A stretch of DNA of 64,000 bases, from NCBI GenBank assembly GCA_038745065.1, contig JBCDLT010000024.1, positions 19,346 through 83,345 on the forward strand, given 5' to 3'. The notes below the pieces were generated by a model that saw nothing but the letters and a program-made list of their open reading frames with translations, did not search any database and was not told where the DNA came from. Below are positions 54,682-61,614 of the stretch, in pieces; the stretch's first letter is position 1; each line of letters begins with the position of its first letter. This DNA comes from Pseudomonadota bacterium (GTDB lineage Bacteria; Pseudomonadota; Alphaproteobacteria; Rhizobiales; JANQQB01). Both the position numbers and the translations under genes were made by a program.

Positions 54682-56706
54682 ATGTCCTTCTTCTCGCCGT
54701 TCACGCACGGATTTCTTCGGGTGGCGACCGCCACCCCGCGCTGCCATATTGCCGACCCGGTCCGAAACGCAGACGAGACGCTGGCGCTGGCCCATGACGC
54801 CGATACCGGCCATGTCGATCTGGTCGTTTTTCCGGAACTGGGCCTAACCGGCTATACCAATGACGACTTGTTCCTGCAGGAGGCCATGCACACGGCTGCC
54901 GAGGAGGCGCTCCGGCAGATCGTCGACGCGAGTGTCGACCTGCATCCCGTTCTGGTCGTCGGCATGCCGAAAGTCATTCAGGGACAATTGTTCAACCTGG
55001 CGATCGTCGTGCATCGCGGGCGCATTCTCGGCGCGGTTCCGAAACTCTTCCTGCCGACCTATCGGGAATTCTACGAGAAGCGGCAATTCTCCGGCGCGGA
55101 TTCGCTGACGGCGACGGAAACGCATCTGGCGGGGCAGACCGTGCCGGTGGGCCTTGACCTGCTTTTCGAGGCCGACGACGTAGCCGGTTTCGTCTTGTCC
55201 CTGGAAATCTGCGAGGACGTCTGGGCGCCGATCCCGCCAAGCGCCGTAACTGCGCTTGGCGGCGCCACCGTGATCGCAAACCTGTCGGCCAGTAACGTCG
55301 TGATCGGCAAATCCGATTATCGGCACGCGCTGTGCCGGGTGCATTCGGCACGCACGATGGCGGCCTATCTGTATTCCGCGGCCGGGCGAGGCGAATCGTC
55401 GACCGACCTGTCGTGGGACGGCCATGCGATGATCTACGAAAACGGTCACCTGCTTGCCGAATCGGAGCGGTTTTCGACCGATCCGCAGCTTGCCGTCGCC
55501 GATGTCGATCTCGATCTTCTCAATCTGGAGCGGGCACGCCACAACACCTTTGCCGACAACGCGGCGCGCTACAGCACCGAGATCGCCGCGCTGCGTCGGA
55601 TCGGATTTACGCTGGGCCGGGTGGCGGCGCCGATAACCCCGTTGCGCCGTCCGATTTCCCGTTACCCTTTCATTCCCGACGATCAGGACAAACGCGACGA
55701 ATTGTGTTTCGAAGCCTACAACATACAGGTCTACGGCTTGCGGACACGGCTTGAGGCGACGGGGATCAAAAAAATCGTCATCGGGGTCTCGGGCGGTCTC
55801 GATTCAACCCAAGCCTTGATCGTGGCGGCCCGGGCCTTCGATCAACTGGGTCTGCCGCGCGAAAACATTCTCGCCTATACGCTCCCGGCCTTTGCCACCA
55901 GCGATCACACAAAATCCAATGCCTGGGCCCTGATGCGGGCGCTTAAGGTGTCGGCGGGCGAAATCGACATGGAACCGTCGGCAATGCAGACCCTCAAGGA
56001 CATCGGACACCCGTTTGCCGATGGCAAACCGCATTACGATGTCACGTTCGAAAACGTCCAGGCCGGTGCCCGCACCGCACTGCTCTTCCGATTGGCGAAC
56101 AAGGAAGGCGGTCTTGTGCTCGGGACCGGGGATCTTTCGGAACTGGCGCTCGGCTGGTCGACCTATGGCGTCGGCGATCACATGTCCCACTACAACGTCA
56201 ACGGATCGGTCGCCAAGACCCTGATCCAGCACCTCATCCGATGGGTTGTCGCCCGTAACGAGTTCGGCGATGACGCGTCGGCCGTCCTGCAATCGATCGT
56301 CGACACGGAGATCTCACCTGAACTGGTCCCGGGCGCCGAGAGCGGCGGGTCCGGTCCGGCGCAACGCACCGAAGATTTTGTCGGACCCTACGCGCTGCAG
56401 GATTTCAATCTGTTCTATACGACGCGGTACGGCCTCAGGCCGTCGAAGGTGGCCTATCTGTGCCATCACGCCTGGGGTCCGGAATCCGGAGAGGGCGCCT
56501 ATTCGCTGGCGGAGATCAGACGATGGGCGCAGGTTTTCCTGAAACGCTTTTTCCAGACCAGCCAATTCAAGCGGTCGGCCGTGCCGAACGGGCCGAAAGT
56601 CGCCTCCGGCGGCTCGCTCTCGCCACGCGGCGATTGGCGGGCGCCGAGCGATTCCCGGGCGGATATGTGGCTCGCCGAACTGGATGGGAATGTGCCGGAA
56701 ACCTGA
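54682..56706 (+). CDS. nadE: Glutamine-dependent NAD+ synthetase
   Basis: Nitrilase domain ([19 protein letters not shown]) fused to synthetase ([22 protein letters not shown]). Confidence 0.97.
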
Positions 56707-56784
56707 CGCTCGGCTCTTTGCCTTCGGCGAACGACGACCTCAGATCCTTACCAATTGGTTTCGCGGACCGCGAAATTCCGTCTC

Positions 56785-57174
56785 GAATCGGGACAAGGTC
56801 CTGACCCGGTGTCGGGCCCGTCAGCGGGCGGGCATCCCTCCCGACACCGAGACGGTCGCTCTTCGGGCCTGTTTTCGGGGATTTCGCGCGGATCAAAGCA
56901 AAAACATCCGCGGGTCCGCGATTCGTTTGGTATTCGTTCCCGTTTGAATCTATTCGTGAACGGGGTCGACGCCGGGATGCCAGCCTGGAAAATATTTTGT
57001 TAACCTCTTGACTCTTTTCGATTCGGCGAATCGGACCGAAGACTCGGAAATCGGGCAACTTTAGGCTAAAGATTCAATATATCGTGCTTCGAACACAGAA
57101 AATCACACATCTTGTATGGAACAAATCCTGAATCACGCTGAGTCAGCGATTCGGTCAGTCTTTGTTCTAGACTC
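56785..57174. promoter_or_regulatory. Dense cluster of 12 GANTC sites
   Basis: Sites at 56785, 56920, 56946, 57010, 57020, 57028, 57041, 57071, 57130, 57140, 57148, 57170 (counted by eye). Confidence 0.85.
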
Positions 57175-57178
57175 GTTC
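57164..57178. promoter_or_regulatory. Alphaproteobacterial LexA (SOS) box
   Basis: GTTC-TAGACTC-GTTC exact GTTC-N7-GTTC; near match GAAC-N7-GAAT at 57119-57133. Confidence 0.65.
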
Positions 57179-57360
57179 CGAAGCTGACCGGGCGAAAGGC
57201 GTGCAACAAAAAATCCTTCCTGACCGGCAAAAGCCGTGGCTGACCCGTCGCTCTGTGCTATGTGAGCCCAAACGCCATAGCAAAGGCAGCCGGAACACGT
57301 ATCGGCAGCCTCGGCATGAGTGACGACTGGCCATCGTAGACGCACCTGGATCAATCCCGA

Positions 57361-60300
57361 ATGTCTGGTTTTTCCCAACCGGTTTCCGGTTCTTCGCGGT
57401 CGAATCGCAATCGTTTGGTGACCGCCGTACTTGGCCCGACCAATACCGGCAAGACGCACCTGGCGATTGAGCGCATGCTCGGCCATGAGACGGGCATGAT
57501 CGGATTGCCGCTCCGATTGCTGGCCCGCGAGGTCTATACAAAGATCGCCGGCCGGATCGGAGAGAACGCCGTCGCGCTCGTCACCGGGGAGGAGAAGATC
57601 CTGCCGGCGGAGCCCCGATACTGGGTCTGCACCGTCGAGGCAATGCCGCTCGATACCGACGTTGCGTTTGTCGCCATCGACGAAGTGCAACTGGCCGGTG
57701 ATCTGGAGCGCGGCCATGTCTTTACCGATCGGATCCTGAACCTGCGCGGCCAGCAGGAGACCCTTTTGCTCGGAGCCGCGACGATGCGCGGTATCCTGGA
57801 GCGCATCGTTCCCGGCATCAATGTCATCACCCGACCGCGCATGTCGGTGCTTGCCTATAGCGGGCAGAAAAAGATTACACGGCTCCCGCCACGCTCGGCG
57901 ATCGTCGCGTTCTCGTCAGACGAAGTTTATGCGATCGCAGAACTGGTGCGCCGACAACGCGGCGGCGCCGCGGTGGTCATGGGCGCGCTCAGCCCGCGTA
58001 CCCGCAATGCCCAGGTGGCGCTCTACCAATCCGGAGACGTCGATTTTCTGATTGCGACCGACGCGATCGGGATGGGGCTCAACCTGGACGTCGATCATGT
58101 GGCCTTTGCGTCGGACAGGAAGTTCGACGGATACCAGTACCGGTCGCTGACCCCGGCCGAACTCGGCCAGATTTCCGGTCGCGCCGGTCGGCATATGAAA
58201 GACGGCACGTTCGGCGTGACCGGGCGCGTCGATCCGTTTCCGGACGACGTGGTCGATGCACTCGAAAGCCATGCGTTCCAACCGGTCTCGATCCTGCAAT
58301 GGCGCGAGCGCAAACTCGATACGTCAAGCGTTGCGGCCTTGCGGGCTTCGCTCGATACCGTTCCAGGCATTCAGGGCCTCACCCGGGCCCCGGCGGCATC
58401 CGATATCGTGGCGCTCGATCACGCCATGAAAGACGACGAGGTCATCGACCTCGCTACCGGGTCCGAACGGGTGGCCTTGCTCTGGACAGCATGCCAGCTT
58501 CCGGACTACCGGAAAATCGCACCCGCCAACCACTACGAACTCATCCACGCGATCTTCACGCAGATCGCCCGATCCGGTCATGTCGATCCGGACTGGTTCG
58601 ACACCCAGGTCAAACAATGCGCCAATACCAATGGCGATATCGATGCGCTGGCCAACCGGATTGCCCATATCCGGACCTGGACCTATTTGGCCAACCGACC
58701 CGACTGGCTGGCGGATGCCGAAACCTGGCGGGAAAACACACGGGCGATCGAGGATACGCTTTCCGACGCGCTGCACGATCGCCTGATCCAGCGCTTTGTC
58801 GACCGGCGGACCAGCGTCCTGATGAAACGGCTACGGGAAAATGCAATGCTTGAAGCCGACATAAACGATGCCGGCGATATCGTGGTGGAAGGCGAGCATA
58901 TCGGCCACCTCGAAGGCTTCCGGTTTACCCCGGCGTCGCGTGGCGACAGCGCGGAGGCAAAGGCCGTTCGCGCGGCCGCGATGAAGGCATTGGCGGAGGA
59001 AATCGGCCGGCGGGCGGATCGCATGGCTGCGGCCGACAACGCAGCCTTCGTCCTGGCGGCCGGCAAGACCATCCGCTGGCAGGGGGCTGCGGTGGCCAAG
59101 CTGGCGGCGTCGGACGATCCGCTGAAACCGCGCGTGATCCCGCTTGCGGACGAACATCTGACCGGTCCGGCGCTGGAAAAGGTGCAAAAGCGTCTGGACA
59201 CATGGCTCGCGGCCCATATCGAAGGAGCCTTGAAACCGTTGCTCGACCTGCGGGACGCTGCGGATCTGACAGGTATTGCCCGCGGTGTGGCCTTCCGGCT
59301 CGTTGAGAATTTCGGCAACATCGCCCGCACCGAAATCGGCGAGGACATCCGCAAGCTTGACCAGGAGACCCGTGCCGTGATGCGCCGTTACGGCATCCGT
59401 TTCGGTGCGTACACGATCTATGTACCGGTTCTTCTGAAGCCGGCACCGAGCCAATTGCTCGCCGAATTGTGGGCGCTCGCCCAACCCGAGGACGACGTGC
59501 CCGGATTGCAGGAGATTCCGCAATTGTCCGCTTCGGGCCGAACCTCGGTGCCTGTCGATGCGTCGTTCGCGTCGGAAATGTACCGGATTGTCGGGTATCG
59601 GGTCTGCGGCGCGCGCGCCGTCCGGATCGACATTCTCGAACGGCTGGCCGACCTGATCCGTCCGCTGATCGCATGGCGCGCCAGCGAGACGCAGCCGACA
59701 CCGCCGGACGGGGCGATCGAGCGCGGCGGCGGCTTTACCGTGACCGTGGCGATGACCTCGCTGCTCGGTTGTTCGGGGGAGGACTTCGCAGGAATATTGA
59801 AGACCATCGGATACCGCGTGCAACGGGTTCCGAGGCCAGTGCCGCCAGTGCCTCATGCCGACACGTCCCTCACAAATGGGTCGGCCGAGGGAGGCGCCAC
59901 AGCGCTTCAAAATGGTGAGGCGGCGACCGCCGCCGAAAACGGCCTTGCAGACAGTCCTGAAGCAACCGACGCCCTGCCGGCTGTCGATGGCGTGGACGCC
60001 TTGGCGAATGCCGCTGTTGCCGAAACCGGCAGCGCGCCGGCTGAGGCGTCTCCGGCAGCGCAGGAAACCGACGCGGTTCAGGTTGGCGAACAGGACGGGA
60101 CGGATAGGCCGCTCGATGCGGTTGCCTTAGTGGCTGAAGGTCCGGCAACCGATAATGGCGGAGCACCGGAAACCGACGGCGACGGTTCTGCGATCGACGG
60201 CGACGCAGCGGAAACGCGCCAGGCCGTATCAAATGCCGAAGATGTCCCGGATTTCATCGAAATCTGGCGACCGGGCGGGGATCGGCAGCGCAACGCGCGT

Positions 60301-60552
60301 TCCCGGAACAAACCAAAGGCCGGCAAGACCTCGGATGCAGGGCGGGGCTCGCGCCGGCCCGCAGGCAAATCCGGCGGCCGCGGCGATCGCGATCAGGAGC
60401 GCAGGGCTTCCGGAGACAAAGGCGGAAAACGGCCGCCGCGAAAGGACGGTCAGGGCGGCAGGAATGCCCGCCCCGAAAAACCGCTTGATCCGGATTCTCC
60501 CTTCGCCGCGCTTGCCGCGCTGAAAGCCAGCATGGAAAAAGATCAAAAGTGA
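57361..60552 (+). CDS. SF2 helicase, SUV3/MgpS-like
   Basis: LGPTNTGKT, PLRLLARE, IDEVQ, ATDAIGMGLN, QISGRAGR, C-terminal PDSPFAALAALK. Confidence 0.92.
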   Translation: MSGFSQPVSGSSRSNRNRLVTAVLGPTNTGKTHLAIERMLGHETGMIGLPLRLLAREVYTKIAGRIGENAVALVTGEEKILPAEPRYWVCTVEAMPLDTDVAFVAIDEVQLAGDLERGHVFTDRILNLRGQQETLLLGAATMRGILERIVPGINVITRPRMSVLAYSGQKKITRLPPRSAIVAFSSDEVYAIAELVRRQRGGAAVVMGALSPRTRNAQVALYQSGDVDFLIATDAIGMGLNLDVDHVAFASDRKFDGYQYRSLTPAELGQISGRAGRHMKDGTFGVTGRVDPFPDDVVDALESHAFQPVSILQWRERKLDTSSVAALRASLDTVPGIQGLTRAPAASDIVALDHAMKDDEVIDLATGSERVALLWTACQLPDYRKIAPANHYELIHAIFTQIARSGHVDPDWFDTQVKQCANTNGDIDALANRIAHIRTWTYLANRPDWLADAETWRENTRAIEDTLSDALHDRLIQRFVDRRTSVLMKRLRENAMLEADINDAGDIVVEGEHIGHLEGFRFTPASRGDSAEAKAVRAAAMKALAEEIGRRADRMAAADNAAFVLAAGKTIRWQGAAVAKLAASDDPLKPRVIPLADEHLTGPALEKVQKRLDTWLAAHIEGALKPLLDLRDAADLTGIARGVAFRLVENFGNIARTEIGEDIRKLDQETRAVMRRYGIRFGAYTIYVPVLLKPAPSQLLAELWALAQPEDDVPGLQEIPQLSASGRTSVPVDASFASEMYRIVGYRVCGARAVRIDILERLADLIRPLIAWRASETQPTPPDGAIERGGGFTVTVAMTSLLGCSGEDFAGILKTIGYRVQRVPRPVPPVPHADTSLTNGSAEGGATALQNGEAATAAENGLADSPEATDALPAVDGVDALANAAVAETGSAPAEASPAAQETDAVQVGEQDGTDRPLDAVALVAEGPATDNGGAPETDGDGSAIDGDAAETRQAVSNAEDVPDFIEIWRPGGDRQRNARSRNKPKAGKTSDAGRGSRRPAGKSGGRGDRDQERRASGDKGGKRPPRKDGQGGRNARPEKPLDPDSPFAALAALKASMEKDQK

Positions 60553-60962
60553 CCGACAGCGCCGCGATCGAACGCCAGCGGATTGACAAGTGGTTGTGGC
60601 ACGCCCGGATCGTCAAGACGCGCACGCTGGCGCAAAGAATTGTCGGTGGCGGAAAAGTCCGTGTGAATCGGGACAAGGTTGTCGCGTCAAGCGCCTCGGT
60701 GCGGGTCGGTGACGTACTCACAATCACGCTGTTGAAGCGTGTCTTGGTCCTCGAGGTCGTCGGGTTCTGTGACCGAAGGGGTCCGGCGAGCCTGGCGCAA
60801 ACGCTCTACGAAGACCTATCCGCCCCGGCGCCGGTCAGAGGCACGGAGGACCCCTCTGCAGCGGCCGACGCGGCGGTCCATCCCGGTGGTCTGGCGGGCG
60901 GGAGACCGAACAAACGGGACCGCAGACGTCTCGCCAACCTGAAAAAAACCGAATCCGGATAA
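60549..60962 (+). CDS. hslR: S4-domain ribosome-associated heat shock protein Hsp15-like
   Basis: [27 protein letters not shown]; GTGA overlap with helicase. Confidence 0.88.
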
Positions 60963-61275
60963 GTCTCCTGCCGCGTTGTCAGGCTCGGTTGTGCAAGCAA
61001 TTTGCCGGTCCACGATGATCGGGACCGGCTGTTCGCCGCTGCGTTTCACGTCGGCCGACGACGCATCCGGTAAAACGTCGCCTTGCCTTTTTTGGCAAAA
61101 TTGCTACGTCCTGCGGGAACCCACAGGATCGCCGCTGGCGAAAGCCGCGAAGGCGGGCCAAACCGGCGGGCTACCGTCAGCCGACTGGCAAATGGTACGG
61201 GGTGCCGCGATCAGTCAGGCCGACCGGTTGTTTCCGGAACGCGCCTCGCAGGGCAACACGATAAGGGAGAGGTCG

Positions 61276-61614
61276 ATGACCTACGTCGTCACGGACAATT
61301 GCGTACGGTGCAAGTACATGGATTGCGTGGAGGTCTGTCCGGTCGACTGCTTTTACGAGGGCGAAAACATGCTCGTCATCCACCCCGATGAATGCATCGA
61401 TTGCGGCGTGTGCGAGCCGGAATGCCCGGCAGAGGCCATCAAACCCGACACAGAACCCGGTCTCGAAAAGTGGCTGGAAGTGAATGCGGAATATTCCGAA
61501 AAGTGGCCAAACATCACAATGAAGCGGGACGCGCCCCCGGACGCTGAAAAATTTGACGGTCAAGCGGGCAAATTCGAACAATATTTTTCGGCAAATCCCG
61601 GTCAAGGCGATTGA
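61276..61614 (+). CDS. fdxA: Ferredoxin FdxA
   Basis: [29 protein letters not shown]...[13 protein letters not shown]; AGGGAGAGG RBS. Confidence 0.96.

Follow-up and report, generated by a model that had tools for sequence, protein, structure and literature searches.

Why should one spacer in an alphaproteobacterial genome hold more target sites of the methyltransferase CcrM (GANTC) than any other place in that genome? The question is raised by a 64 kb stretch of contig C24 (64 000 nucleotides, here called the window), in which 12 such sites lie upstream of the gene for a Suv3-like helicase. The original prediction, made from the letters of the DNA, had proposed a cell-cycle or replication-timed methylation element acting on the helicase gene and the hslR gene that follows it. 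On the sequence evidence given below, the cluster is best read as the transcription-control region of an mgpS-like helicase–hslR operon, inherited across the Hyphomicrobiales, and we see about an even chance that this operon is under dual control by the SOS system and by CcrM/GcrA. The parts concerned are as follows (ORF, open reading frame).

56785..57174, unstranded: GANTC hyper-cluster of 12 CcrM target sites (site count, genome ranking, Markov simulation)

56707..57360, + strand: intergenic spacer of 654 bp from the NAD synthetase gene to the helicase gene, the whole control region (ORF list, Pfam)

57361..60552, + strand: Suv3-like DEXQ-box helicase, 1063 amino acids (Pfam PF22527 and PF00271)

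60549..60962, + strand: hslR, S4-domain Hsp15-like protein (Pfam S4; NCBIfam Hsp15, E = 9.8e-16, under the curated cut-off)

The hslR gene is probably co-transcribed with the helicase gene because its start overlaps the helicase stop. The gene 5′ of the spacer varies by lineage (nadE here, a phbB-sized ORF in Ensifer, others elsewhere), and for this reason the control region is assigned to the helicase and not to the upstream gene.

Is the density of sites out of the ordinary? All of the sites counted in the original prediction were recovered (at 56785, 56920, 56946, 57010, 57020, 57028, 57041, 57071, 57130, 57140, 57148 and 57170), 11 of them inside the 255 bp from 56920 to 57174. Its claim that GANTC is under-represented was likewise borne out, with 143 sites in the whole window where dinucleotide shuffles predict 352 ± 18.5. 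In the 6.59 Mb genome (10 836 GANTC sites, 1.64 per kb) the cluster ranked first at scan lengths of 150, 255, 390 and 500 bp with 8, 11, 12 and 12 sites; the runner-up locus had 6, 7, 9 and 9, so that a comparable density was found nowhere else in the genome. The Poisson probability of at least 11 sites in 255 bp at the genome rate is 1.2e-12. First-order Markov simulations from the dinucleotides of the spacer reached 11 sites in 255 bp once in 20 000 runs, under a generous null, since the spacer's own dinucleotides are inflated by the GANTC sites themselves. The cluster occupies the A+T-richest part of the spacer (45% G+C versus 62% genome-wide). Its rank in the genome and its conservation (see below) rule out a chance origin. 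Several of the runner-up windows are supplied by a repetitive ORF of 1257 codons outside the window (C43:28799-32572, − strand), which is built from GAGTC- and GAATC-bearing repeats; these are therefore coding repeats and not regulatory clusters.

Two triplets of sites with 10/8 bp spacing, exactly 120 bp apart, had also been singled out. Both the spacing and the offset exist, but beyond the forced GA.TC letters only 2/11 positions are common to the triplets, and the offset is repeated in a relative of the same genus and absent in Ensifer (corresponding sites at −162, −154 and −148 from the core described below). Because the triplets share almost no unforced letters and the offset is lost outside the genus, it is read here as coincidence. 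Helical phasing of the sites was considered and given little weight, the resultant being weak (0.26 at 10.5–11 bp, 150 pairs) and mostly owed to an 11 bp pair shared by related loci.

Has the cluster been inherited? Upstream DNA was compared for 39 order-level family orthologs, 80 named loci and 40 class-level orthologs; the named set consists of the 80 closest relatives, is rich in Mesorhizobium and gives counts that are not independent. The helicase was found in 40/40 sampled families of the order (the match in G031, a 67%-complete genome, was weak, with E = 5.8e-4) and in 59 of a further 90 sampled alphaproteobacterial genomes. At least five GANTC sites in 255 bp were present upstream of it in 12/39 families of the order (one with up to 14), in 63/80 named loci (including Mesorhizobium, Rhizobium, Ensifer, Agrobacterium, Bradyrhizobium, Stappia, Roseibium and Brucella thiophenivorans) and in 2/40 class-level loci. 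The cluster is thus kept upstream of orthologous helicases across the order, and in four of five relatives examined it is among few tight GANTC triplets.

The most conserved part of the region, an alphaproteobacterial-type LexA box together with an invariant 14-mer, had been missed by the original prediction. Both belong to a module of about 90 bp.

57103..57188, + strand: proximal module (CAnATnT, GAACAAA, GAATC, GAGTCAGCGATTCG, TTTGTTC-N7-GTTCC; profile search, column conservation, alignment)

56881..56942, + strand: distal degenerate tandem copy (GATTCG .. GTTT-N7-GTTCC; second nhmmer match, C24:76226-76287, E = 1.3e-4)

57140..57153, + strand: core 14-mer GAGTCAGCGATTCG with two GANTC sites 8 bp apart (column conservation; unique in the genome)

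57162..57178, + strand: alpha-type LexA box TTGTTC-TAGACTC-GTTC with GACTC in its spacer (same form as at SOS genes of this genome)

57119..57134, − strand: inverted LexA-like half-site GAACAAA followed by GAATC (GAAC-N7-GAAT; column conservation)

Read in order, the module comprises an ATnTnG .. CnAnATnT inverted repeat, GTGAACAAA, CCTGAATC, the 14-mer, TTTGTTC-N7-GTTCC and, in many loci, GTTAA. A profile built from 64 orthologous sequences matched the genome at C24:76448-76533 (E = 2.8e-18), which is the proximal module; the distal copy lies 222 bp upstream of it and the next match in the genome reached only E = 0.46. Conservation of the core was judged only at letters that the selection pattern had not forced, and at these (G at +2, C or T at +7, G at +13) it was invariant in 64/64 distinct sequences. 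The strict module was found upstream of the helicase in 13/39 families and in 53/80 named Hyphomicrobiales loci (Mesorhizobium, Rhizobium, Ensifer, Agrobacterium and Bradyrhizobium), and a looser form, GATTCG followed by GTTC-N7-GTTC, in 22/39 families, among them genomes that have just one to three GANTC sites. Any GTTC-N7-GTTC was present in 69/80 named loci, compared with a chance expectation of about 1.5% per kb. In other alphaproteobacterial orders the module was found at 0/39 loci, the sole class-level match coming from a member of the order itself. No part is shared more widely than the LexA-type box with a single GATTCG beside it; the amplification of GANTC recurs but varies by lineage. 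Distal copies of the module are visible in other genera too. At two Ensifer loci (L121:1940-1985 and L101:1950-1990) the head of the module, CTATATCTTGTGG.GAACAAAA, recurs as a truncated distal copy about 280 bp upstream of the proximal one.

What, then, would bind here? The direct repeat GTTC-N7-GTTC of the box lies at 57164–57178, and in the selected orthologs the distance from the first letter of the 14-mer to the box is constant at 24 bp. An inverted half-site, GAACAAA, stands 45 bp upstream of the box, and its GAAC (−21 to −18) is kept in 54–59 of the 64 sequences; the half-site GAACAAAA also occurs near recA in this genome. According to Table 1 of PMC9578287 and the available part of PMC3323433, GTTC-N7-GTTC is the alphaproteobacterial LexA operator. 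The genome encodes RecA, with TTTTGTTC-N7-GTTC upstream of its gene, and LexA (PF01726, E = 3.4e-16, C55:5873-6058), with boxes of its own upstream. There were 15 matches of TTGTTC-N7-GTTC in the genome; besides the one at the helicase locus, six looked intergenic with A+T-rich spacers, and four of these precede recA, parE-like, comM-like and mmcB-like genes. Since four of the six stand before such genes, the pattern predicts LexA boxes well in this genome. parE and comM are named as SOS genes in the available part of PMC3323433, and that of PMC9578287 cites two SOS-controlled genes for mitomycin-C resistance. The box in the helicase spacer is accordingly a predicted alpha-type LexA operator of the same form as the recA box. 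A Suv3-like helicase with hslR is not named among the alphaproteobacterial SOS genes in the available parts of these two papers. Outside the window, the spacer before a parE/gyrB-like gene (C9:74927-75300) has a LexA-type box, TTGTTC-N7-GTTC, at C9:75052 and six GANTC sites in 255 bp; this cluster is among the ten or so densest in the genome and is a second locus that combines an SOS box with a GANTC cluster.

Could the operator by itself account for the GANTC sites? They would then be a by-product of an array of LexA-type half-sites, with methylation uninvolved. GTTC resembles the ATTC within GATTC, GAnTCGTTC units recur every 11 bp (GATTCGTCGCC, GATTCGTTCCA, GACTCGTTCC), which is the LexA repeat period, and 11 bp is also the commonest spacing of adjacent sites (14 cases). 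The LexA box is more widely kept than the cluster, and the effect of CcrM depletion in Agrobacterium tumefaciens is small (see below). Moreover, GTTC-N7-GTTC ‘can easily overlap GANTC sites’ (PMC7987155), which would explain conservation at SOS genes without a regulatory effect; overlaps are described at SOS genes such as ruvC and imuA (PMC7987155). Several observations speak against this explanation, which we hold to be unlikely. None of the recA, lexA, parE-like, comM-like and mmcB-like genes of this genome has a GANTC site in or beside its LexA repeat, and GTTC-N2-GANTCGTTC occurs once in the genome, in the helicase spacer. The middle letter varies while GA.TC is kept (GACTC or GAGTC at +30, GAATC or GACTC at −10 in the 64 sequences), and neither GAGTC nor GACTC resembles GTTC. 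Among 45 genus-level loci, selected by a pattern that required GANTC at 0 and +8, sites that the pattern did not require were present at +30 in 29, at −10 in 24 and at +19 in 18. The module itself held 3.7 GANTC sites and the 388 bp upstream of it 10.1 per kb, mostly at non-homologous positions, compared with 2.6 per kb downstream; most of these upstream sites are not of the form xTTC-N7-xTTC, and yet they reach this density.

Is the machinery to methylate and read such sites present? Whether the genome has ccrM had been a point for checking, and a single PF01555 gene was found, a 378-residue ORF that matches Caulobacter CcrM (PDB entry 6PBD) over residues 24–374 with E = 3.2e-165. GcrA is encoded as well, at full length (PF07750, E = 4.9e-54, C73:17578-18069). 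The context proposed for activation by GcrA, YGAKTCK (PMC7987155), fits 7/12 sites of the cluster versus 20.5% genome-wide (binomial p = 0.0045), the narrower YGATTCG fits 5/12 versus 10.2% (p ∼ 0.005), and in the orthologs YGAKTCK fits 71/177 upstream GANTC sites. The available part of PMC6813329 lists lexA and uvrA among the targets of GcrA found by chromatin immunoprecipitation with sequencing in Brucella abortus. Taken together, the variable middle letter with GA.TC kept, the uniqueness of GTTC-N2-GANTCGTTC, the GANTC-free boxes of the other SOS genes, the high upstream density and the enrichment of YGAKTCK argue against a side effect and for selection of the sites as targets of methylation.

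Further upstream in the spacer, a promoter may be recognized.

57007..57045, + strand: central element, CTTGAC overlapped by GACTC, then GATTC-N3-GAATC and GACTC, after an A+T-rich stretch (read from the sequence)

Its CTTGAC matches the rhizobial −35 consensus, and further GANTC sites follow 10–20 bp downstream; the element may be a promoter whose two hexamers both coincide with methylation sites. The combination of CTTGACTC with a second GANTC site about 17–19 bp downstream is repeated in several other families. Because hslR is a heat-shock gene, an RpoH-type promoter (CTTG .. CCACATAT) was also considered. It was rejected, as the spacing of about 22 nt counted on the alignment is too long against the 17–18 nt of the RpoH consensus.

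Must the protein on the 14-mer be LexA or GcrA at all? An order-specific DNA-binding protein might instead recognize GAGTCAGCGATTCG together with the ATnTnG/CnAnAT repeat, with GANTC methylation modulating or competing with its binding. The 14-mer is far more constrained than CcrM requires, the module is confined to one order and the cluster is found where the spacer is richest in A+T; in addition, MucR is described as shielding GANTC in Brucella and Caulobacter in the available part of a preprint (10.1101/2024.03.01.583015). On the other hand, no candidate regulator gene is linked to the locus, whose upstream neighbours vary, and the module stands at a single locus per genome, which is unusual for a dedicated regulator. 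CGATTCG, moreover, is already the published context preferred by GcrA (PMC7987155). We regard such a protein as possible but doubtful. The inverted repeat ATnTnG .. CnAnAT itself, at 57092–57117 and in the orthologs of many genera, surrounds a spacer of about 22 bp just 5′ of the module (CATGTGG .. CCACATA in a Mesorhizobium example) and shows no RNA-type covariation; it may be the site of a dimeric protein.

Might the module act instead as RNA, that is as a structured leader or a small RNA (sRNA) controlling the helicase mRNA, with the GANTC sites incidental? Transcription-start data bear on this from Sinorhizobium meliloti, in which the ortholog SMc03877 is annotated as an ATP-dependent RNA helicase, called mgpS, and is reported to be induced by acid (PMC4941405); it was identified through the 674 bp spacer after SMc03878, which matches the 241-residue ORF upstream in Ensifer. 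Same-strand starts in the orthologous spacer are reported at −420 (58 reads), −307 (128) and −304 (297) and, nearer the gene, at −149 (65), −80 (311) and −74 (186), the first three being labelled as the putative sRNAs SMc_sRNA_357 and SMc_sRNA_358 (PMC3616915, supplement file 2). From what is available of that source, these labels may follow only from a start more than about 300 nt upstream. The starts were placed on Ensifer sesbaniae indirectly, by their distance from the upstream stop codon, and the signatures of the first three letters, as we read them, fit at most of them. The −304 start maps immediately 3′ of a conserved GATTC; it stands about 65 nt ahead of the core, upstream of the module. 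Against an RNA role, RNAalifold gave −2.92 kcal/mol and 0 covarying pairs for 41 diverse sequences, and the GAACAAA/TTTGTTC arms are mismatched (A opposite C) in 39/63 sequences. CATGTGG/CCACATG pairs in 60.9% of cells versus 59.6% in shuffles, 132/500 of which scored as high. An Rfam scan (E ≤ 1) gave no family in the spacer, its two matches being at chance level and both outside it. A structured RNA at the module was rejected on the family search, the covariation and the arms, and we consider an RNA role altogether very unlikely.

Is the spacer perhaps the origin of the chromosome, or else an origin-like element that serves sequestration or timing? TTAAC half-sites, an A+T-rich stretch, GANTC clusters and, in some orthologs, a partial DnaA-box-like ATCCACA would suit such an element, and the locus is origin-proximal. 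Alphaproteobacterial origins adjoin hemE, and the distance of the helicase gene from hemE in five closed chromosomes is 51, 127, 171, 305 and 864 kb (1–13% of the chromosome length); the five are related, so that this is a tendency and not a statistical test. The coordinates of the S. meliloti (3.54 Mb) and A. tumefaciens (2.75 Mb) orthologs presumably also lie near the ends of the chromosome numbering, given the chromosome sizes and origin position that we assume. The proximity to hemE fits a replication-timed signal. As for an origin at the spacer itself, the GC skew is positive over the whole 86 kb contig C24 with no switch at the locus, both flanking genes lie on the same strand and hemE is on another contig (C30:68640-69653), beside a separate GANTC cluster; an origin here was rejected on the skew and on hemE, and we judge any such replication element extremely improbable. 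A DnaA box at ATCCACA was rejected as well, because the word is not kept and CCAGAT, CCATAT or CTAGAT stands in its place in many orthologs. The cluster near hemE (C30:∼66400-66900, outside the window) has six GANTC sites in 255 bp and eight in 500 bp and lies about 2 kb from that gene; the region is likely to be the chromosomal origin.

How could the two systems act together on the helicase–hslR operon? The sequence shows how the region is built, that it is unique in the genome and conserved, and that lexA, ccrM and gcrA are present; from these observations we infer the binding proteins and the direction of their effect. The LexA operator TTTGTTC-N7-GTTCC with its inverted GAACAAA half-site would place the operon in the SOS regulon, repressed by LexA. 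The array of CcrM sites around and inside the operator, many of them YGAKTCK and including the invariant GAGTCAGCGATTCG, would form a second layer. Because the locus is near the origin, replication would leave the sites hemimethylated from early S phase up to the action of CcrM late in the cycle. GcrA together with sigma-70 RNA polymerase would then respond to this state, or LexA would occupy its GANTC-bearing operator differently, and the output of the operon would be tuned to the replication and DNA-damage status of the cell. A more specific form of this account, which we think decidedly unlikely, is that the array serves Hyphomicrobiales alone as a damage sensor coupled to replication, with methylation-gated LexA control. 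LexA, or GcrA in competition with it, would bind fully methylated and hemimethylated DNA differently, and the helicase–Hsp15 operon would be freed from SOS repression only in a set interval after passage of the fork through this origin-proximal locus; the extra GANTC sites would serve as a cooperative loading platform for GcrA or CcrM that gives a sharp threshold.

What weighs against dual control? The main evidence against a strong methylation switch comes from A. tumefaciens, in which the ortholog pair is Atu2753 (a 1032-residue helicase) and Atu2752 (the S4-domain protein). On depletion of CcrM in unsynchronised cells, Atu2753 changed 1.30-fold (adjusted P = 0.032) and 1.15-fold (not significant) in the two comparisons, Atu2752 changed 1.04- and 1.08-fold, recA rose 3.7- and 3.3-fold and lexA rose 1.28- and 1.09-fold (PMC11514494, Table S4). 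The operon thus shows neither a strong methylation dependence nor a strong SOS induction in that species, its rise being close to that of lexA. The small change is compatible with opposing effects (loss of activation and SOS derepression) or with a change in timing only. Because the same table considers GANTC only up to 200 bp from the ORF, it gives two sites for Atu2753. The main text of a separate GcrA study in A. tumefaciens does not mention the gene. Three further points on the same side come from the region itself. The hyper-cluster is less widely kept than the LexA box (12/39 versus 22/39 families); a sigma-70 consensus scan gave 0 promoter-like sites; and since the strongest upstream S. 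meliloti start maps about 65 nt before the core, the LexA box may lie inside a long leader and not on the promoter. The module sequence was not found in the S. meliloti promoter tables. Finally, the extended GcrA motif was not confirmed in Brevundimonas (PMC7987155). Of the timed element in the original prediction, then, conservation, CcrM/GcrA, the YGAKTCK contexts and the proximity to hemE remain; evidence of a bistable switch of the Dam/GATC type was not found, and the A. tumefaciens ortholog barely changed.

How does the locus compare with known systems? With the CcrM/GcrA promoters (Caulobacter ctrA P1, ftsZ and mipZ; A. tumefaciens repABC-Ch2 and ddl-ftsQAZ) it shares conserved GANTC sites in the promoter region, the YGAKTCK context and a genome that encodes both proteins. 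The known cases, however, have one to five sites (five in A. tumefaciens Pddl), whereas there are 11 in 255 bp here and up to 14 in a relative; here they are joined to a LexA box, and the locus is known from sequence, with a change of at most 1.3-fold in the A. tumefaciens ortholog on CcrM depletion. With the alphaproteobacterial LexA operators (recA, lexA, uvrA, imuA, comM and parE) it shares TTTGTTC-N7-GTTC, as at recA in this genome, kept before orthologs; it differs in that the spacer and flanks of the box are full of CcrM sites, unlike the other boxes of the genome. The enterobacterial Dam GATC switches (pap and agn43) and SeqA-bound clusters are alike in their local excess of methylation targets in a regulatory spacer, over a repressor site, and competition between a binding protein and the methylase is conceivable here. 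CcrM, however, is restricted to part of the cell cycle, and the expected signal is one of timing and not of heritable phase variation; nothing in the sequence of the helicase spacer shows an ON/OFF switch of the Dam type. To our knowledge there is no SeqA-type reader in Alphaproteobacteria. The hypomethylated GANTC sites shielded by MucR in Caulobacter, Brucella and Sinorhizobium are alike, as far as the available accounts go, in lying in A+T-richer intergenic DNA, where protection from CcrM is possible; the same accounts describe MucR targets as A+T-rich, whereas the helicase module is G+C-rich and sequence-specific.

Is the locus new? The original prediction had put it forward as a candidate for an undescribed system, which does not hold, as the overlap of GANTC sites with LexA boxes is already in print (PMC7987155); it is an extreme and conserved case of known systems. 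The two component systems are known; what appears undescribed in the literature searched is this locus, with its module and its extreme density. No paper joining mgpS with GANTC and none on this locus was found in that literature, which excludes about 1.7 million PubMed Central papers and most subscription journals. The 200 bp upstream window of published screens may explain why the cluster was overlooked. CcrM/GcrA and SOS are the best-studied DNA-linked regulation in Alphaproteobacteria and this locus is their densest overlap; the module is present in model rhizobia, Agrobacterium and Bradyrhizobium, so the idea is testable in tractable strains. If dual control is correct, a widely conserved and unstudied Suv3-like helicase and Hsp15 would join the DNA-damage and cell-cycle network. 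The damage-sensor form, if true, would be the first case of methylation-gated LexA control and would suggest a role for a Suv3-type helicase and Hsp15 in replication or transcription conflicts.

The surroundings of the operon are simple to describe. The gene 5′ of the spacer is the following.

54682..56706, + strand: glutamine-dependent NAD synthetase gene, nadE (Pfam)

A ferredoxin gene lies 3′ of hslR, and the NAD synthetase, helicase, hslR and ferredoxin genes are all on the + strand. NCBIfam has no model for the helicase, whose orthologs are those of S. meliloti (SMc03877) and A. tumefaciens (Atu2753) discussed above. The closest public relative of the host is a Rhodobiaceae metagenome-assembled genome, and matching DNA occurs in marine metagenomes; no RNA data set is listed with them. 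A short upstream ORF of seven codons (57316–57339, ATG..TAG) stands in the presumed leader, 22 nt 5′ of the helicase start codon. The ferredoxin ORF at 60976–61614 is listed with a TTG start and 212 residues; its Fer4 and DUF3470 domains begin only around residue 96, and the true start may lie further downstream.

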